A stretch of 20,629 bases of DNA from a virus, in the IMG/VR virus record IMGVR_UViG_3300032167_002503. One strand, written 5' to 3'. Below the pieces are notes generated by a model that ran no database searches, was not told the origin of the DNA, and saw only the letters and a list, made by a program, of their open reading frames with translations. The position numbers were made by a program, and so were the translations under genes. Below are positions 1-6,714 of the stretch, one piece after another (the first letter of the stretch is position 1; every line of letters starts with the position of its first letter).

Positions 1-1673
1 GAGGTGTCGGTGCTGCGGGAACGCGTCCAGTACCATGCTGCGGTAGCGGTAGAGTCACTCTGATTCTTAACACGATTGGCGTTGCTACTATAATAGCTAT
101 AAGCAGCAGAGCAACCATTGGTATATTCACCTGTTGTTGGAGCATACTGATAGCTGGCAAGACCCATCTCGTGGATAGAGGGCAGGAATACGGTTTCGTC
201 GGTATAGGCTACAGAAGAGCTATTATAGTTGGTGTTAGTTCCCTTGCTTACGGTCTTGATAGAAGCTTTTCCAGGGAAAGCGTTATAATAGCTAGTACAA
301 ATGGTCTTAGCAGTAGAGTCAGTACCTGGGTCCCATTGAGCACTAGAGCCGAAAGCTGTGGTAGTTGGTAGACAGTTGACAGTCTGCCAAGTTACAGTGT
401 TAGAACCGTCTTGGTCGACACCAATAACACGAATAGTGTGTGTGGTAGCACCTTGAACAGCACTAGACAAAGTAACACTCTTAGTTGCACCAACAATGCT
501 AGAACCACCTGTTGTTTTGATTGTAGAACCCTTGTTAGAAGCAAGGTAACTCTTCAATCCAGCAAACCAAGCAGCATCAGCAGCTTCACCAGTACCGGCA
601 CCGAAGGACCAGTATTGGGCAGAAACCGTGAATGTTGCGTTGGAAGGGGCAGTGTAGTTGGTACCAGCAGATACCTTCACCGTAATTGTCGTGGACGACA
701 CATTGGTACTTCCATTACCTTTCACAGTGATTGTTTTGCCACTGACGCTTAAAGTCAAGCCTGTTACGCTAGTAGGAGTGATACTAACAGTACCATCAAA
801 GTTACCGCTCGCAGTAACAGTTACACCGGCAGAGTAGTTGCTTGCAGTGATAGCGACAGTGGTGGGACTGAGAGATAGAGTACCTGTTGCTTTGTTGATA
901 GTCCAGTTGACATCAAGAGCAGTGGTGGTCCCATCGGCCCAACGATAATTGCTCTTCAGGGTGAAAGTGGCGGTATAAGTACCAGCATTGGTAGAAGAAG
1001 TGGTTCCACCAATGGTCATATAAGTGGTGTTATAGTTGTTCCAAGAACCTGTACCACTTACAGACTGAGCGCTACCGTTATAGGTAAGATTGCTCTTCCA
1101 GGTAGGCTTAGTGACAGATTTACGATTGACTACCACATTGAAGGTAGTGGTTTTAGTTACTCCGTTCTCTGCATAAGAAACAGTAATAGCTTGAGAGTTA
1201 GTTACAGTATTCAAAGCAGTTGGAGAGCAAGAGTAGCCAGTAACAGCCGCGGTCTTACCATCGGAGTAAGTAGCAGTAACTATCATGCCCGCTGTTGCTA
1301 GGGTATCACCATACTCATAAGAAGTCTTTGTAGGATTGGTGGTAACAGCAATCTTAGTCAACTTATGGGTTACAGTAACAGCTTGTTGAGCAGTACAAGT
1401 GACGCCACCCTCAGAATAGGTGATAGTCACAGAAGTTACGCCATCGGACAATGTGGTAGGAGAAACAGTATAACCAGTAACTTCCGTAGTAGCGATTGGC
1501 ACAGAACCAATCACATAGGTAGCTTCGACTACCATGCCAGATGCATTGAATGTATCGCCGGCAAGATAACTGGTTTTAGTAGGAGCAGTCTTAATTGCAA
1601 TGCTTTGAAGCACAACAGAACTGCCGCCGCCTCCACCGGAGCCTTGCTGTTCGGTTAAAATACACTTAGGCAA
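1..1673 (-). CDS. Large surface/adhesin-like protein with tandem bacterial Ig-like (Big_3-type) repeats. It starts at TTG (plus 1671-1673) and continues beyond the window start, so the in-window part is the N-terminal ~557 aa.
   Basis: Hand translation of the minus strand from TTG begins MPKCILTEQQGSGGGGSSVVLQSIAIKTAPTKTSYLAGDTFNASGMVVEATY.... AAGGAGG lies 8 nt upstream. An in-frame TAG upstream closes the ORF. Repeated 'TKTSY..GDT...GM.V.ATYSDG' units are characteristic of Big_3 (PF07523). The segment near window position 1 reads ...ETVFLPSIHEMGLASYQYAPTTGEYTNGCSAAYSYYSSNANRVK...AAWYWTRS, resembling the FLLS...WWLRSP motif of DUF6273-type Firmicutes surface domains. No minus-frame stop was found in the stretches scanned. 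The ORF is absent from the supplied track because it has no in-window stop. Confidence 0.7.
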   Translation of the reverse strand, partial: MPKCILTEQQGSGGGGGSSVVLQSIAIKTAPTKTSYLAGDTFNASGMVVEATYVIGSVPIATTEVTGYTVSPTTLSDGVTSVTITYSEGGVTCTAQQAVTVTHKLTKIAVTTNPTKTSYEYGDTLATAGMIVTATYSDGKTAAVTGYSCSPTALNTVTNSQAITVSYAENGVTKTTTFNVVVNRKSVTKPTWKSNLTYNGSAQSVSGTGSWNNYNTTYMTIGGTTSSTNAGTYTATFTLKSNYRWADGTTTALDVNWTINKATGTLSLSPTTVAITASNYSAGVTVTASGNFDGTVSITPTSVTGLTLSVSGKTITVKGNGSTNVSSTTITVKVSAGTNYTAPSNATFTVSAQYWSFGAGTGEAADAAWFAGLKSYLASNKGSTIKTTGGSSIVGATKSVTLSSAVQGATTHTIRVIGVDQDGSNTVTWQTVNCLPTTTAFGSSAQWDPGTDSTAKTICTSYYNAFPGKASIKTVSKGTNTNYNSSSVAYTDETVFLPSIHEMGLASYQYAPTTGEYTNGCSAAYSYYSSNANRVKNQSDSTATAAWYWTRSRSTDT

Positions 1674-1796
1674 GTTGATAACCTCCTTGTAATCTTTATC
1701 TAGAGGTTAGTATCCAAGATACCTAATAGCTAGCTTAAAGATTGAGGATGGAAGGCAATCTTTGCCCTAGTGTTTTAGAAATCCCGTAGACACTTT

Positions 1797-1823
1797 CCGA
1801 GAAAAAGTACACTTTTTAACGGG
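1797..1823. repeat. Left arm of an inverted-repeat pair. The 12-bp perfect core GAAAAAGTACAC at 1801-1812 is the reverse complement of GTGTACTTTTTC at 1965-1976. The flanks are imperfectly extended (CCGAG...AACGGG).
   Basis: The core 12-mer and its exact reverse complement sit about 150 bp apart. Chance occurrence in a 400-bp intergenic region is roughly 0.5%. The flanks match at CCGTAA with a 2-3 nt indel. Confidence 0.6.
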
Positions 1824-1905
1824 AAAATACTTCTTCGTCTAGATAATAAAAAATTGGGAAAGAGTATACATACCCTTTCCCATTACAAGTGAGTATCTTA
1901 CTCTT

Positions 1906-1945
1906 TCAATATATATAAAAAAAGCCATGGATAAATTATCCATGG
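1906..1945 (-). terminator. Intrinsic-terminator-like hairpin oriented for the minus strand. It has a perfect 9-bp stem CCATGGATA / TATCCATGG with a 3-nt loop (1925-1945). On the minus strand it is followed by CTTTTTTTATATATAT.
   Basis: Seen directly in the sequence: aaaaaaagCCATGGATAaatTATCCATGGttgccc. The T-tract is present only on the minus-strand side. The hairpin lies inside the segment bounded by the 12-bp inverted repeats, in the leader region upstream of the Big_3 gene. Confidence 0.5.
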
Positions 1946-1957
1946 TTGCCCAAAATT

Positions 1958-1985
1958 CCGTAATGTGTACTTTTTCAAAGGTCTG
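1958..1985. repeat. Right arm of the inverted-repeat pair (GTGTACTTTTTC core at 1965-1976).
   Basis: Exact reverse complement of 1801-1812. The flanking CCGTAAT resembles the reverse complement of the left flank. Confidence 0.6.
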
Positions 1986-2009
1986 GATAGATGAAAGGAG
2001 CTTTTAAGC

Positions 2010-2699
2010 TTGGCTGTAAAATGTGCGGATTGGCAATTTTTTGGGCAAAAGTGGTTAAATAAAATTGCCAATTCCGCAAGTATCTATGAGGTGATAAAGG
2101 TGTTATATGGTTATGCATGTGTTAGTTCACGAGACCAAAACTTAGACCGCCAGATCGTTGCTCTTGTTGACGCTGGGGTCGATGAAAACAATATCTTCAT
2201 AGATAAACAGTCGGGTAAGGACTTCAATCGTCCCGCCTATCAGAAAATGTTATCCACAGTTAGCCAAGGCGATATGATTCTACTTAAGTCGATCGATCGC
2301 CTTGGCCGCAACTACTCCGAAATCCTTGAGCAATGGGGCTTAATCACAAAGACCAAGGGAGTGGATATAAAGGTTCTAGATATGCCTCTACTAGATACAT
2401 CCTATTGTAAGGACATTATGGGTACCTTTATATCCGACCTGGTCTTGCAAATCTTATCCTTCCAAGCTGAACAAGAACGTACTTATATCAAGCAGCGGCA
2501 AGCGGAAGGAATAGCGGCTGCGAAACAGAAAGGCGTGAAATTCGGGCGCCCGCGCAGACCGCTTCCCGATAATTTCGATGAACTCTATGAACGCTTCCTT
2601 CGCAACGAGCCCGTCTCAAAACTAGCCAAAGAGTGCGAAGGAATGTCAGAAAGTACGCTCCGCCTACGTCTCAATGAACGATTGGCCGAAAGTGGTTAA
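2010..2699 (+). CDS. Small serine recombinase (resolvase/invertase family, ~200 aa). The most likely true start is GTG at 2100, preceded by GAGGTG; the TTG at 2010 in the ORF track is probably too far upstream.
   Basis: From 2100 the protein reads (M)LYGYACVSSRDQNLDRQI..., the classic resolvase N-terminus with the catalytic serine. The C-terminus GVKFGRPRR...STLRLRL matches the resolvase HTH domain. Confidence 0.88.
   Translation: MAVKCADWQFFGQKWLNKIANSASIYEVIKVLYGYACVSSRDQNLDRQIVALVDAGVDENNIFIDKQSGKDFNRPAYQKMLSTVSQGDMILLKSIDRLGRNYSEILEQWGLITKTKGVDIKVLDMPLLDTSYCKDIMGTFISDLVLQILSFQAEQERTYIKQRQAEGIAAAKQKGVKFGRPRRPLPDNFDELYERFLRNEPVSKLAKECEGMSESTLRLRLNERLAESG
2027..2075. promoter_or_regulatory. 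Inverted repeat GGATTGGCAATTTT (2027-2040) / AAAATTGCCAATTCC (2061-2075), with a third related half-site TTGGGCAAAAG in the 20-nt spacer. It sits immediately upstream of the serine recombinase start. It is a candidate recombinase binding site (res/operator-like).
   Basis: Seen directly. The TTGGCAA half-sites occur in inverted orientation. A TAAAAT -10-like element lies at 2017-2022. Confidence 0.4.
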
Positions 2700-2745
2700 T
2701 CAATCTTCCTTTTGTTTCAAATATAATATAAAGGAGGAATAGACT

Positions 2746-3138
2746 ATGAATATGGAAATGATTGCTCAGATTTTCGAGCTATGTATTCTCCCCCTGCTCG
2801 GTATTTTAACCAAGTTCCTCGTGGACTTCTTAAACGCAAAGCGTGATGAGGCTCATGCCAAAACCGATAGTGTAATCACTCAGAAGTATGTAGACATGAT
2901 CCACAAAACCATTACCGATTGCGTTATTGCTACCAACCAAACCTATGTTAATAGCTTAAAGGATGCGGGCACTTTTGATGAAGCGGCTCAAAAGGAAGCC
3001 TTTAATAAAACATTAAGTGCGGTGCTGGCAATTCTCACCGATGACGCCAAGGAATATATTACCGAGGCAACTGGCGATGTAAATACATATCTCACTCAGC
3101 TAATCGAGGCTGAAGTCAACAAGAATCGCAAAGCATGA
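2746..3138 (+). CDS. Holin-like small membrane protein (LL-H-type architecture). It has one N-terminal TM helix followed by a charged helical tail.
   Basis: The translation begins MNMEMIAQIFELCILPLLGILTKFLVDFL and continues with a K/E/D-rich helical region. GGAGG lies 9 nt upstream of the ATG. The assignment rests on architecture only. Confidence 0.4.
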   Translation: MNMEMIAQIFELCILPLLGILTKFLVDFLNAKRDEAHAKTDSVITQKYVDMIHKTITDCVIATNQTYVNSLKDAGTFDEAAQKEAFNKTLSAVLAILTDDAKEYITEATGDVNTYLTQLIEAEVNKNRKA

Positions 3139-3139
3139 T

Positions 3140-3172
3140 AAGACGGGCGTATAGCCCGTCTTATTTTTTTTC
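3140..3172 (+). terminator. Rho-independent terminator: 9-bp stem AAGACGGGC / GCCCGTCTT with loop GTATA, followed by ATTTTTTTTTCG.
   Basis: Seen directly, immediately after the TGA stop of the 2746..3138 ORF. Confidence 0.8.
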
Positions 3173-3204
3173 GTTAAAAAGTGGGAAAAAAATTGGCAAA
3201 ATTG

Positions 3205-3235
3205 TTCAAACAGCTTATCTCAATTTTCATATAAT
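3205..3235 (+). promoter_or_regulatory. Possible sigma-70-type promoter: TTCAAA at 3205-3210, a 19-nt spacer, then TATAAT at 3230-3235.
   Basis: Hexamers seen in the sequence, 40 nt upstream of the strong RBS TAAGGAGG of the 3277 gene. The spacer is 2 nt longer than optimal. Confidence 0.3.
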
Positions 3236-3276
3236 AATGAAAGACCAAGAGAAAAAATTTTTAAGGAGGCTTAAAC

Positions 3277-3708
3277 ATGGCAGTTAACTATCCATACTAC
3301 CCACAGTAGCAGCCGTAGCAACAGCAAATGATGAACCCGTATGTTGCACGGATGCCATATGTGGAGCAGCCCTAGATTGGAATTAAAGGCCGCCCAGTTT
3401 CTTCAATCGAAGAAGTTAGGGCGACAAGCATTGACTTTGATGGCTCCATCTTCTTCTTCCCTGACCTTGCCAATAAGAAAATCTATACCAAGCAAATCAA
3501 CATAGATGGAACATCAACGCTAAATGTGTATGAACTCAAAACTATGCCGCTCGTTGAAAACCCTAATAGTACCATCGACTCTACTCAGTTTGTAACGCGA
3601 GAAGAGTTCGAGGCAGCATTAACCCAGATAAAAGAAAAAATTGCGCCGCAACCAGTACCAGTGGTCGCGACGCAGTCGTAGAATGGCGAGCAGTATAAAA
3701 ACTTTTAA
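3277..3708 (+). CDS. Q/P/Y-rich small protein (143 aa if TAG is read as a sense codon). It contains four in-frame TAG codons (3307, 3316, 3373, 3679) and terminates at TAA 3706-3708.
   Basis: TAAGGAGG lies 7 nt upstream of the ATG. Translation with TAG=X gives MAVNYPYYPQ X QP X QQQMMNPYVARMPYVEQP X IGIKGRPVSSIEEVRATSIDFDGSIFFFPDLANKKIYTKQINIDGTSTLNVYELKTMPLVENPNSTIDSTQFVTREEFEAALTQIKEKIAPQPVPVVATQS X NGEQYKNF*. The reading frame is continuous and protein-like across all four TAGs. Under the standard code the ORF would be only 10 aa despite the strong RBS. Confidence 0.7.
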
Positions 3709-3720
3709 GGAGAGAAGAAA

Positions 3721-3954
3721 ATGACCCCAATGGAAATAATTCAAATGATTAGGAATGGACAGAACCCTCAGCAGATTACAATGAATATTCTCGAAAGCAG
3801 ACTTGGCAGCACTCCGATGGGTGCCAATTTGCTTGCTCTAGCAAAAGACAACAATACTCCAGAAATCGAGAAAGTTGCACGTAATCTGATGTCCCAAAGA
3901 GGGTTAGACTATGACAAGGAGTTGGCTTCCTTTAAGAAGATGTTTGGTCTTTAA
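3721..3954 (+). CDS. Hypothetical small protein (77 aa).
   Basis: ORF with AAGGAGA RBS. No recognisable family. Confidence 0.5.
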   Translation: MTPMEIIQMIRNGQNPQQITMNILESRLGSTPMGANLLALAKDNNTPEIEKVARNLMSQRGLDYDKELASFKKMFGL

Positions 3955-3977
3955 TAATCTTAAAGGAGGAACACTTA

Positions 3978-4829
3978 ATGTTCAACACTAACAATGGTTA
4001 TTCTTTGTCTGATATCGCGGCTGTCACAGGTTCTGGCAACAACGGAAATGGTATGTGGGGCGGAGACGGTGCATGGTGGGTTATCATCCTGTTAATCCTG
4101 TTTGCAGGTGGTTGGAATGGTAACGGCTTCGGAGGCGGCAATGGAGCTGCGGGAACCGAAGGTACTATTACTCGTACCGCTATCCATGATGGTTTTACTA
4201 CCAATGGTATTGAGAATGGCATTCGTGGTATTCAGCAGGGTCTCTGCGACGGTTTCTATGCTATGAACACCGGTATGCTTAACGGCTTCAATAGCGTGAA
4301 CAATGCTATCTGTGATGCTGGTTATGCTACACAGCAAGGTTTTAACACCACCAATGTAGCCTTGATGCAGGCTCAGAACGCTCTTGCAACTCAGCTTGCA
4401 AATTGTTGCTGCGATACTCGCGCCGCAATCCAGCAAGCAAGCTTTGACAATGCTCAGGGTATGAACGCACTCACTCGCCAGGTTGCTGATTGTTGCTGCG
4501 AGACCGGCCGCCAGATTGAGAGAGGCTTTGCCGATGTCAACTACAATATGGCAACCAACACCGGCGCACTTCAGACCTCTCTGGCTAACAGCACTCGTGA
4601 CATTATCGACAGCCAGAATGCAGGCACCCGTGCAATCCTTGATTATCTCTGCCAGGAGAAGATTGCAGACCTGCAAAGCGAGAATCAGGCACTTCGTCTT
4701 GCCGCTTCTCAGCAAGCTCAGAACAACTATCTCATTAGCGAGCTTGCGCCTAAACTCCCGGTTCCCGCATATGCGGTACCCAATCCCTTTGTGCCCTATG
4801 GGTATACTAACTGCAACACTTGTTGCTAA
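3978..4829 (+). CDS. Gly-rich, Cys-cluster-containing protein with an N-terminal TM anchor (283 aa).
   Basis: AAGGAGG RBS. The N-terminus is a G/N-rich stretch followed by a hydrophobic segment WWVIILLILFAGGW. Three Cys clusters are present: NCCCDTRAAIQQ, DCCCETGRQIE and a C-terminal NCNTCC. There is a central Q/A/N-rich repeat region. No recognised family. Confidence 0.6.
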   Translation: MFNTNNGYSLSDIAAVTGSGNNGNGMWGGDGAWWVIILLILFAGGWNGNGFGGGNGAAGTEGTITRTAIHDGFTTNGIENGIRGIQQGLCDGFYAMNTGMLNGFNSVNNAICDAGYATQQGFNTTNVALMQAQNALATQLANCCCDTRAAIQQASFDNAQGMNALTRQVADCCCETGRQIERGFADVNYNMATNTGALQTSLANSTRDIIDSQNAGTRAILDYLCQEKIADLQSENQALRLAASQQAQNNYLISELAPKLPVPAYAVPNPFVPYGYTNCNTCC

Positions 4830-4863
4830 TTAACTGACACCATAAAAGGAGAGATTTGGTTCA

Positions 4864-5286
4864 ATGGAAATTATTGCGAACGCTTTACAAACCGTAGAAG
4901 CTAATCAAAACGTCCTTTTTACCGACACTGTAGTAGGCTGCTCCAACAGCCTACTACATCGTACTGGTAGTGGACTTGTTACTCTAAGAGGTAACGCATC
5001 AACACAGTGTCGTGCGCGTTATCGCGTGTTCTTCAGCGGAAATATCGGCCTTCCCGCAGACGGAACCGTAGAAGCTATCTCCATTGCTATTGCTATCAAT
5101 GGTGAAGCTGTTGCTTCTTCCACAATGATTTTTACCCCTGTTGCCGCAGAAGACTTGGGCAATGTAGCAAGTATGGTATTCATCGACGTACCTCGTGGCT
5201 GTTGCTTTGAGGTTTCTGTACGCAATACCTCTACTCAGGCTATTGATGTGCAGAACGCAAATCTGATTGTAGAAAGGGTGGCCTAA
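4864..5286 (+). CDS. BclA C-terminal domain-like (TNF/C1q-like beta-sandwich) protein, 140 aa. It is standalone, with no collagen-like repeat region.
   Basis: The C-terminus ...AIDVQNANLIVERVA resembles the BclA CTD ending ...IIIEKVA. The preceding segment ISIAIAINGEAVASSTMIFTPV resembles the BclA beta-strand region. GGAGAG RBS. Confidence 0.5.
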   Translation: MEIIANALQTVEANQNVLFTDTVVGCSNSLLHRTGSGLVTLRGNASTQCRARYRVFFSGNIGLPADGTVEAISIAIAINGEAVASSTMIFTPVAAEDLGNVASMVFIDVPRGCCFEVSVRNTSTQAIDVQNANLIVERVA

Positions 5287-5288
5287 GT

Positions 5289-5939
5289 ATGACAGAAAGA
5301 CTAAAAAGAATGAAAGAAACTCTAGCCTCTTGTGTCGAAGGGCAGCTTGGCAATCTGCAAAACGTCGATGCAAAAGAACTTGGCGAAGTAGTAGACATGG
5401 TGAAAGACCTTGAAGAGGCTATTTATTACTGTACTATTACAAAGTCCATGGAAGAAGCCGAACAAAAAGAAAAGCATACCGAGCATCACTATTATACGCC
5501 TATGTATTATCGTGATATGGATCGTTATGACCGTGGTAGAATGTACTACCCAATGATGGAAGAACCAATGTACTATGACGGCCAACCTCGCGACTCCCAG
5601 GGTCGTTTTATGGATGATGGACGTCGTCAGTATGGTGGCAATGGAAATGGTGGCGGCAATGGTGGTTCCACTCGCCAGTATCGAGAAATGGAAATGCCTA
5701 TTGACTGGAGAGATGAACGCGAAGGCCGCAGTCCCATGAGCCGTAAAATGTACATGGAGTCCAAGGAGATGCATAAAGATAAGGCCACTAAGCTCAAAGA
5801 CCTAGAGCACTACATGAAGGAATTGAGCGAAGACGTGGTAGAGATGATTAAAGACGCTAGCCCAGAAGAGAAGCAACTCTTGGAGAAAAAGATTAGTGCT
5901 CTTGCTACCAAGGTTGGTTCTTTGAACACAAGTGCTTAA
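5289..5939 (+). CDS. Tyr/Met/Arg-rich low-complexity protein (216 aa) with helical N- and C-terminal regions and a disordered Y-rich core.
   Basis: The core reads HHYYTPMYYRDMDRYDRGRMYYPMMEEPMYYDGQPRD...GGNGNGGGNGG. No recognised family. Confidence 0.55.
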   Translation: MTERLKRMKETLASCVEGQLGNLQNVDAKELGEVVDMVKDLEEAIYYCTITKSMEEAEQKEKHTEHHYYTPMYYRDMDRYDRGRMYYPMMEEPMYYDGQPRDSQGRFMDDGRRQYGGNGNGGGNGGSTRQYREMEMPIDWRDEREGRSPMSRKMYMESKEMHKDKATKLKDLEHYMKELSEDVVEMIKDASPEEKQLLEKKISALATKVGSLNTSA

Positions 5940-6243
5940 TATCAATGGGGAGGAGTGGAGACTGCTCTTCACTTCCTCCAATCATCCCGCGCTTATGAGA
6001 AGCGACGGCTCCTATACAATAGGCGCCTGTGACAATACGACAAAGGCTATCTATATTCGAGAAGGATTACCGCCAGCTCTCACAAAGAAAGTTCTATGCC
6101 ATGAGCTAACCCATGCTGCAATGTTTAGCTATGATGTAGAACTGTGTCTAGAACAAGAAGAATTGCTAGCTGATTTAATAGCCACATATGGTCAAGAGAT
6201 TATATCCATGACGAATGGTATATTCTCGAGACTAAGAAAATAA
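5932..6243 (+). CDS. Short ImmA/IrrE-family (M78-like) metallopeptidase-domain protein with an HExxH motif (103 aa).
   Basis: ...TKAIYIREGLPPALTKKVLCHELTHAAMFSY matches the 'I.IN..l....rRFTLAHELGH' core of COG2856/DUF955. Its start overlaps the upstream gene's end. Confidence 0.55.
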   Translation: MLNINGEEWRLLFTSSNHPALMRSDGSYTIGACDNTTKAIYIREGLPPALTKKVLCHELTHAAMFSYDVELCLEQEELLADLIATYGQEIISMTNGIFSRLRK

Positions 6244-6279
6244 GGGGAACCCAATCAAGGGTTCCCCTTTTTCTTATTG
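6242..6279. terminator. Bidirectional intrinsic terminator: 11-bp stem AAGGGGAACCC / GGGTTCCCCTT with T-tracts on both strands. It is shared by the convergent plus operon (TAA at 6241-6243) and the minus module (TAA at 6274-6276).
   Basis: Seen directly. The stop codons of both convergent genes abut or overlap the hairpin. Confidence 0.8.
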
Positions 6280-6714
6280 TTGTGCTTCTTCGTGGGTAGG
6301 CAAATCCATCACTTTGTTGTAATACTCCTCCGCCTGACCGTTTCCGCCAAGTCCATGGTATACCTTATAGAACTCGCTTAACTGCTCGTACTATTCTTGG
6401 GTGGTATATCCTTGTTTAATGTAGATTCTACACAGTTGGACTAACCGAAAGCGGTATGAAGAAATGATTAAATCTAAACGTGCCTAGTTTGCGACTTCCG
6501 TGTTTAACACGTGTTTTCGCAATTCCTCGATTTCTTCCTTTATCGGTTGAAGCTTGGTCTCAATCGCTTCATCCAAGTCTTCGCGCTTCTCGTTCTCTAA
6601 AAGAGTTTTATAGTTCTTCAACTGCTTAGAGAGATACTTACAACCTGCAAGAGCGCCCGCAGAAATTAAGCCGAAGACTATTTCCAAAAGGTGTTCGGTG
6701 ATAAAGGCTCCCAT
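6274..6714 (-). CDS. Membrane-anchored coiled-coil protein (146 aa with TAG read as sense). It has an N-terminal TM helix with BhlA/holin-like architecture. There are two in-frame TAGs (6484-6486, 6391-6393), and the gene ends at TAA.
   Basis: AAAGGAGGA RBS. The translation MGAFITEHLLEIVFGLISAGALAGCKYLSKQLKNYKTLLENEKREDLDEAIETKLQPIKEEIEELRKHVLNTEVAN X ARLDLIISSYRFRLVQLCRIYIKQGYTTQE X YEQLSEFYKVYHGLGGNGQAEEYYNKVMDLPTHEEAQQ* stays protein-like for 70 codons beyond the first TAG. The supplied track truncates it at 76 aa. Confidence 0.6.

Follow-up and report, generated by a model that had tools for sequence, protein, structure and literature searches.

In the fibre switches of phages Mu (G segment and Gin) and P1 (C segment and Cin), and in those of e14 (P and Pin) and p15B (Min), the invertible segments are kilobases long and carry alternative C-terminal fibre exons that inversion fuses to an unchanging promoter and N-terminal part. 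To our knowledge, phage fibre inversion switches such as those of Mu and P1 all shuffle coding exons. The hix and gix sites span 26 bp and have an AA/TT centre, and the Hin/Gin/Cin/Pin invertases depend on a recombinational enhancer bound by Fis. In Salmonella, the H segment inverted by Hin is about 1 kb in length, holds the hin gene itself, and exerts on/off control over one operon; in Clostridioides difficile, on/off control of the bacterial gene cwpV involves the tyrosine recombinase RecV, with the promoter lying outside the switch. For the Sin and beta recombinases of Gram-positive plasmids, the target is a compact res or six site (~90 bp) in directly repeated copies, made up of a crossover site and an adjoining accessory site and used together with an HU-like protein; their main task is to resolve plasmid multimers, and beta can also invert DNA. 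Here we analyzed a 20,629-nt stretch of virus DNA (IMG/VR virus record IMGVR_UViG_3300032167_002503; "the window," to whose full length all coordinates refer), focusing on a pair of inverted repeats in the 423-nt intergenic region at 1677 to 2099, between a Big_3/DUF6273 gene on the minus strand and a Resolvase-domain gene on the plus strand. Comparison of the window with related contigs (numbered L001 onward) makes it quite probable that these repeats are the cores of two recombination sites of the adjacent recombinase and bound an invertible regulatory cassette of about 175 bp, which is probably frozen in the window and flips in relatives.

Such a cassette resembles the Mu, P1, e14, and p15B switches in that a phage small serine recombinase would invert DNA beside tail-fibre genes so that one of two fibres is made, a form of host-range bet-hedging. 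In contrast to those systems, the invertible segment here would be a short noncoding regulatory one, two complete fibre genes would stay fixed outside it, the enzyme is Sin-like, and the sites have an AC centre. Judged from its sequence, this design would be different from that of the known fibre switches, and a search of one paper library found no description of a phage switch built in this way. A 2026 paper presents its few candidates as, by its own account, the earliest report of putative invertons in gut viral genomes assembled from metagenomes (PMC13501310). Compared with hix and gix by general anatomy rather than by alignment, the present sites have an AC/GT centre and A5-GT half-sites. 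As with Hin, a serine recombinase would invert a segment whose regulatory signal directs transcription outward; unlike in the Hin system, the recombinase gene is not part of the cassette, which has a divergent gene on either side. The cwpV switch, in which an intrinsic terminator forms between promoter and surface gene in only one orientation of a short invertible leader, is the closest analogue of the terminator model put forward in the original prediction, an earlier reading of the window. However, the recombinase here is of the serine type, the 20 to 35 nt available in the relatives are too few for an outside promoter, and the toggle would be between two phage genes. Sin itself (2r0q) is the best match of the window recombinase among solved structures, but in contrast to the res sites of Sin and beta, the locus has two separate inverted palindromes, 152 nt apart on one molecule, and no recognizable accessory site is established. 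The only candidate accessory element is T(T/G)(G/A)NCC beside one of the sites; that a conserved palindrome inside the cassette serves as an accessory site is speculation.

The perfect 12-bp inverted repeat named in the original prediction is present exactly as described, with the 12-mer GAAAAAGTACAC at 1801 to 1812 and its reverse complement at 1965 to 1976. The segment between them was put at about 134 bp and proved longer, the two 12-mer arms lying 152 nt apart. The inverted repeat extends to 15 nt, of which 14 match (1801 to 1815 and 1962 to 1976). Moreover, each arm belongs to a longer, imperfectly palindromic sequence whose 2-bp centre is asymmetric, and the two sites are in inverted orientation. 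The left candidate recombination site (1794 to 1825, ~32 bp) has the form AAAAAGT-AC-ACTTTTT, is centred on AC at 1809 to 1810, and holds the arm at 1801 to 1812. The right candidate site (1953 to 1985) has the form GTAATGT-GT-ACTTTTT, is centred on GT at 1967 to 1968, and holds the arm at 1965 to 1976; TTGCCC (1946 to 1951) lies immediately inside it. Two crossover sites inverted relative to each other, with a dimer of a serine recombinase bound at each, would be expected to have such an anatomy. When the intergenic region was dinucleotide shuffled 2,000 times, a perfect inverted repeat of at least 12 nt with a spacer of 50 to 400 nt arose in 1.15% of the shuffles, and the whole window contains four such pairs versus 0.6 expected; taken alone, the repeat is modestly significant and not decisive. 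A possible third site behind the holin terminator (3166 to 3183, complementary to 1810 to 1827 at 16 of 18 positions) shares one half-site only and falls within the chance range of the pair list, and a terminator arm resembling the repeat (GAAAGAGTATAC, two mismatches) is not conserved in other lineages and was judged a coincidence.

The relatives were gathered from contigs encoding individual recombinase homologues, and the orientation of the cassette was read from the assembled contigs. A homologous cassette was found in ~60 related phage contigs representing seven cassette lineages, with ~59 loci oriented as in the window and 4 reversed (L013, L115, L131, and L132). In the P0024 lineage, whose recombinase is 81% identical to that of the window, L115 and L116 encode an identical recombinase protein and agree at every position of their flanks (566 and 584 nt); the central 175 nt are 100% identical in reverse complement, and the 12-nt overlaps are the repeat arms. 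In the P0085/P0093 lineage (recombinase 74% identical), L013 is reversed relative to 16 others, with 97.4% identity over 196 nt in the comparison with L008, and in the P0054 lineage (76% identical), both L131 and L132 are reversed relative to L133 (174 nt, 97.1% identity). The left site is kept in all lineages, and the inversion end-points of the relatives map to its repeat. At the other end, contig breaks in relatives coincide exactly with the inner edge of the right repeat, and five contigs (L025, L026, L027, L127, and L130) begin at the first base common to both orientations, the signature expected of an assembly-graph branch from a mixed population. The reversed forms do not appear to be assembly confusion, because a repeat of 12 nt falls short of the word sizes that, to judge by the contig names, were used in assembly. 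The proposal of an inverton with its cognate serine recombinase beside a phage fibre or surface gene is supported by both orientations in three related lineages, but not for the copy in the window, which is probably not switching, given an Arg-to-Cys change in its recombinase. Two large viral contigs, L056 (1 to 60) and L034 (1 to 46), end 45 to 59 nt outside the left repeat, and the L056 end adjoins the Big_3 start codon; these ends might mark a second polymorphism at the gene start or be arbitrary contig ends.

The same repeats also occur around other DNA. A gapped-pattern search requiring only the two 12-mers returned one viral contig and six metagenome contigs. L001, L002, and L005 are homologous to the window over the whole intergenic region, and L003, L004, L006, and L007 carry identical 12-mers ~150 nt apart around an inner sequence unrelated to that of the window, again with a palindrome and an asymmetric 2-bp centre at each site. 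The segments of L003, L004, and L006 each contain a canonical promoter, e.g., TTGACT-17-TAAAAT, and recombinase genes end within ~60 nt of their repeat pairs, encoding proteins 60%, 44%, and 58% identical to that of the window, respectively. No recombinase was found in the 4.2 kb of L007 examined, where the repeat pair is present. More distant recombinases on viral contigs (55 to 58% identical) are directly followed by segments of 108 to 145 nt bounded by related palindromes such as AAAAAGTATACTTTTT and CAAAAAGTATACTTTTTG, as seen in L077/L078, L082, L096, and L104. Since the repeat recurs beside homologous recombinases around unrelated DNA, the repeat class, by this comparison, is one that travels with the recombinase family. 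A scan of bacterial genomes with the gapped repeat pattern gave a single match, at the palindromic end (98 nt) of a contig in a Calothrix assembly; this match was judged an artefact. In L004 (5132 to 10218), the repeat class brackets a promoter-bearing 175-bp segment with a MobA/MobL relaxase and the recombinase on one side and the gene for a 743-aa SLH-domain lipase on the other, and the promoter is at present directed away from the lipase gene. The recombinase and repeat module thus also resides on a non-phage mobile element.

The recombinase gene of the window (2100 to 2699, plus strand) starts with GTG and encodes 199 aa that match Pfam Resolvase (2.4e-28) and PHROG_125, "DNA invertase" (4.7e-50). 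The original prediction had placed the enzyme among those of the Gin/Cin/Hin type. Against solved structures, however, Sin (2r0q) matches over the full length at 4.7e-35, compared to ~1e-23 for the gamma-delta and Tn3 resolvases and ~1e-16 for Gin (4m6f and 3uj3). By sequence, the enzyme is thus not of the Gin/Hin type, and the PHROG label is a family name only. Codon 7 (2118 to 2120) is TGT, which puts Cys at the position of a catalytic Arg (R8 in Tn3 resolvase), so that of the Tyr, Arg, and Ser of the YxRxS active site, the Arg is replaced; the codon for the Ser nucleophile (2124 to 2126) is present. The N-terminal motif of the window enzyme is GYACVSS; that of 97 among its 120 top homologues is GYARVSS, and Cys is confined to the window's own cluster. 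In the lineage of the window, L018, L030, L031, and L032 have CGT (Arg) at codon 7, whereas only the window and L029, both of which have rearranged regions upstream of the recombinase, have TGT (Cys). In Tn3 resolvase, R8 is one of six residues whose mutation strongly lowers cleavage and recombination (PMC2794168). Because the recombinase lacks the catalytic Arg and no alternative fibre gene remains, the switch copy in the window is probably locked or nearly so, with the Cys-7 enzyme predicted to be inactive. Another Arg-to-Cys change in the recombinase lineage was seen in L018, where codon 17 encodes Cys and others have the Arg of an NLDRQ motif.

Several features lie just upstream of the recombinase start. 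A strong hairpin at 2027 to 2075 (16-bp stem with one bulge and a 20-nt loop) is kept in L018, L030, and L032; the loop sequence is similar to that at the 3' end of the recombinase gene (2041 to 2058 versus 2682 to 2699), and the ATTGGCAA motif of this region recurs near 3192. L029 (1 to 188) and L032 (1 to 117) have yet other sequences upstream of the recombinase. The junction upstream of the recombinase thus appears, from these comparisons, to be a rearrangement hotspot.

As predicted, the gene to the left of the repeats lies on the minus strand and the small serine recombinase diverges from it beyond the segment. This Big_3/DUF6273 tail-fibre-like gene (1 to 1676, minus strand) is partial, continuing past the left end of the window, and matches Pfam Big_3 (2e-11) and DUF6273 (2.2e-6). 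It begins with TTG at 1676, 8 nt downstream of AAGGAGG, and the N terminus of its product, MPKCILTEQQ, is followed by a Gly-rich linker. The arrangement of surface gene, segment, and divergent recombinase, which the original prediction called classic, is real in the window; the usual layout, however, is a different one, with two divergent fibre genes. In the phage clade that bears the cassette, large gut phages with contigs of up to ~155 kb, the cassette in most members sits between the Big_3 gene and a second, divergent fibre module, and the recombinase follows 2 to 3 kb further on. The second module consists of a variable protein of 320 to 655 aa, often together with a DUF4376 protein; the module proteins match tail-fibre PHROG_4492 (5e-11 and 3e-8), and the DUF4376 protein matches tail-fibre PHROG_1348. 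Furthermore, both divergent fibre genes open with M-x-(x)-K-C-I-L-x-x-Q (window 1650 to 1676, minus strand, and 2010 to 2024, plus strand; also L008, L018, L036, and L044), which may be a common docking peptide for alternative fibres. At the DNA level, the fibre-gene starts resemble the repeat core. They were considered as additional recombination sites (AAGTGTATTTTA versus AAGTGTACTTTT) and rejected, the shared N-terminal K-C-I-L peptide being the better explanation of the resemblance. In the relatives, just 20 to 35 nt separate the right repeat from the ribosome-binding site of the second gene; therefore, the signals that choose which fibre gene is transcribed must lie in the cassette.

The window lacks 2,151 bp that are present in L018 (1621 to 3771) and that make up the whole second fibre module. 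Window positions 405 to 2024 match L018 1 to 1620, and window positions 2018 to 6702 match L018 3772 to 8453; the recombinases of the two are 98% identical. The ends of the deletion are joined at the 7-nt microhomology AAAATGT (2018 to 2024), and a remnant of the module is left at 1994 to 2024 on the plus strand, comprising the ribosome-binding site AAAGGAG (1994 to 2000), a TTG start at 2010, and the first five codons, MAVKC. It is because of this deletion that the recombinase is adjacent to the cassette in the window. In relatives (L002, 3827 to 5972; L033, 1 to 1043), the Big_3/DUF6273 gene is followed by two genes, one encoding a small basic protein and the other a reverse transcriptase with a YMDD motif (PHROG_1423, 6.7e-82; RVT_1). 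By its sequence, this reverse transcriptase locus looks like a diversity-generating retroelement, which may target the fibre gene next to the switch.

Within the cassette, the original prediction had described a directional terminator hairpin. Its 9-pair stem and T-run are indeed there (1916 to 1945, minus strand; stem 1945 to 1925), but the hairpin is not alone. A stronger intrinsic-terminator-like hairpin (1845 to 1882, minus strand; stem 1882 to 1855 with 12 pairs, 5 of them GC, and a T-run from 1854 to 1845) also points at the Big_3 gene. This main hairpin is found in all seven lineages, with compensatory stem changes and RNA folding energies of −19 to −28 kcal/mol. The 9-pair hairpin is lineage specific: it is missing from lineages 2 to 4, and the P0054 lineage has a different hairpin and T-run at the same place, so that two lineages, including the window's own, have a second terminator just upstream of the main one on the same strand. 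A conserved block, GAAAGAGTAAGATACTCACTT (1887 to 1907, minus strand), contains the palindrome GAGTA-AGA-TACTC (1891 to 1903) with a near-invariant TAAGAT, and the arms of this palindrome co-vary between lineages (GAGTA/TACTC, AGGTA/TACCT, and GGATA/TATCC). Its 5' arm region and the 3' half of the terminator are complementary in 7/7 lineages, and in computed folds, an alternative pairing of −8 to −17 kcal/mol forms when the 5' half of the terminator is blocked. The block is present once in the window and once in each relative's genome; with that single copy, and with other 17-mer matches lying in coding regions of unrelated phages, it was rejected as a repeated late-promoter or antiterminator-loading element. 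Across the seven lineages, one order is kept on one strand: an AT-rich stretch with TATAT(T/C), TGAAAAG, the small palindrome with TAAGAT, and the hairpin with its T-run. An alignment of four lineages (mean column identity, 82%) shows conservation of the repeat cores, the terminator, and the small palindrome. The directional terminator is a candidate expression signal. Wobble pairs in the hairpin stems (window, L044, and L115) are G-T on the terminator strand, not A-C, which mildly favours an RNA-level structure transcribed in the terminator direction.

Taken as a mechanism, the recombinase would flip the ~175-bp cassette between the two divergent, fixed fibre genes and thereby re-point its expression signals, yielding a host-range toggle via regulatory inversion. 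The cassette is strongly directional, having on one strand an AT-rich stretch with −10-like sequences, a co-varying mini-hairpin, and a strong terminator, all of which point at the Big_3 gene in the window. One way to read this order is as a promoter followed by a regulated leader terminator, with late transcription routed to whichever fibre gene the cassette faces. If so, the present orientation would feed transcription toward Big_3, to which we give roughly even odds. We lean to this reading because the present orientation is the majority one (59 of 63 relatives), because the deletion variant keeps it, with an intact Big_3 gene as its sole remaining fibre gene, and because the changes in the Big_3 gene relative to L018 are mostly synonymous (36 synonymous versus 4 nonsynonymous codon changes). 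The G-T wobbles on the terminator strand and the tandem upstream terminator in two lineages were also counted in its favour. Several observations weigh against the invertible-cassette interpretation or this direction of control. A strong terminator stands between any cassette promoter and Big_3, which disfavours a simple "on" state; expression in the present orientation would need read-through or antitermination, and no factor for it was identified. No candidate in the cassette passed a scan for sigma-70-type promoters, and a hand search of both strands across lineages revealed no conserved −35 and no consistent −35/−10 pair; the promoter-like pairs seen are lineage restricted (TTTACA-17-TAAGAT in the P0043 lineage only and TTGGAT-17-TATACT in the P0085 lineage only). 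At the cassette end opposite the terminator, T(T/G)(G/A)NCC lies 15 to 16 nt before the TACTTT of the repeat in every lineage, facing outward and away from Big_3; the two could form a weak outward promoter, which would agree with the direction of control assigned in the original prediction. With Cys-7, moreover, the window copy may never invert, and no reversed copy was seen in the window's own lineage, in which 4/4 loci have the same orientation.

The original prediction was of the opposite sign: in the present orientation, the terminator of an active inverton would block leftward transcription into Big_3, and inversion would lift the block. In an extended form of this model, inversion would turn an outward promoter at the far end toward Big_3. 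Two minus-strand terminators do lie in tandem between the right repeat and Big_3, and the main one is kept with compensatory changes. The far-end T(T/G)(G/A)NCC and TACTTT fit this model as well, and so do the promoters of L003, L004, and L006, which likewise sit at one end of their segments and face outward. On the other hand, the model implies that Big_3 is off in 59 of 63 assemblies, including the window, a variant without the second fibre gene; this distribution of orientations fits the opposite assignment somewhat better, and the block itself is not supported. Within the far-end element, it is CC that is invariant and not the TTG expected of a −35, and TACTTT is a poor −10. Outside the cassette, the relatives have too little space for a leftward promoter, and the window recombinase is without its catalytic Arg. 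An active block on Big_3 thus seems possible but doubtful. It is less likely still that the repeats in the window's lineage are a static regulatory or binding structure, such as operators for the recombinase or a regulator or a res-like site, with inversion restricted to other lineages. The uniform orientation of the four loci in this lineage would fit such a structure, as would the Sin-like recombinase, since Sin-family members bind res sites and autoregulate, and the inner palindrome and the terminator stem have half-site-like repeats in common. However, lineages 2 and 3 carry identical sites, the lineages in which inversion was seen carry nearly identical ones, and L018, L030, and L031 retain the catalytic Arg. 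Inverted sites ~150 nt apart are not a known res layout, and in relatives the sites lie 2 to 3 kb from the recombinase gene, which makes autoregulation unlikely.

The frequency of comparably long repeats among the shuffles and the three other 12-mer inverted pairs in the window leave some room for the view that the inverted repeat arose by chance in AT-rich intergenic DNA and that the reversed forms of the relatives are assembly artefacts. We regard this as extremely improbable. The repeat is kept across seven lineages and recurs beside homologous recombinases around unrelated DNA; the reversed forms come from contigs with different assembler naming styles, from different samples, and from three lineages; and the 12-nt repeat is probably below the assembly word sizes. 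Together with the perfectly identical flanks of L115 and L116, the conservation of the repeat and its recurrence effectively refute this explanation.

Returning to the invertible cassette, a wider reading can be drawn, which in our view could equally well prove right or wrong in its entirety. A clade of large gut phages in which TAG seems to serve as a sense codon would flip a noncoding ~175-bp leader, made up of a promoter and a mini-hairpin/terminator attenuator, by means of a Sin-like recombinase to choose between two complete fibre modules, one of them retroelement linked and both opening with one docking peptide, and the same module would act elsewhere as a portable promoter switch. If true, fibre switching in uncultivated gut phages would follow a different design, in which transcription is toggled between two fixed fibre genes and a single phage genotype presents two host-recognition states, with regulatory inversion layered on retroelement-driven diversification. 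Host prediction and strain tracking would be affected because contigs break at the switch, and there would be a bearing on the design of phage therapy. The window would serve as a natural experiment, being a variant without one fibre module and probably without recombinase activity, and hence a degenerate and probably frozen example of the switch.

The remainder of the window is phage DNA that encodes a 1271-aa DNA polymerase (PHROG_405), an NrdD-like reductase, a Dda-like helicase, a holin (2746 to 3138), and further unnamed genes. A megablast search of window positions 1 to 6500 against deposited phage records gave no match, and an Rfam search of positions 1500 to 2300 (E up to 5) gave sub-threshold chance matches only. 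A 143-codon frame at 3277 to 3708 on the plus strand contains in-frame TAG at codons 11, 14, 33, and 135, at positions identical in L018 and L030, where the 143-aa product is listed. On these grounds, some genes of this phage seem to use TAG as a sense codon. Fibre genes of lineage 2 carry TAG at positions occupied by CAG in the window, a correspondence suggestive of Gln; the window contains no tRNA gene. Finally, a 283-aa gene at 3978 to 4829 encodes a protein with a Gly-rich N-terminal part and contains a 50-nt imperfect direct repeat (4368 to 4504), the copies of which are 72% identical with an 87-nt period.

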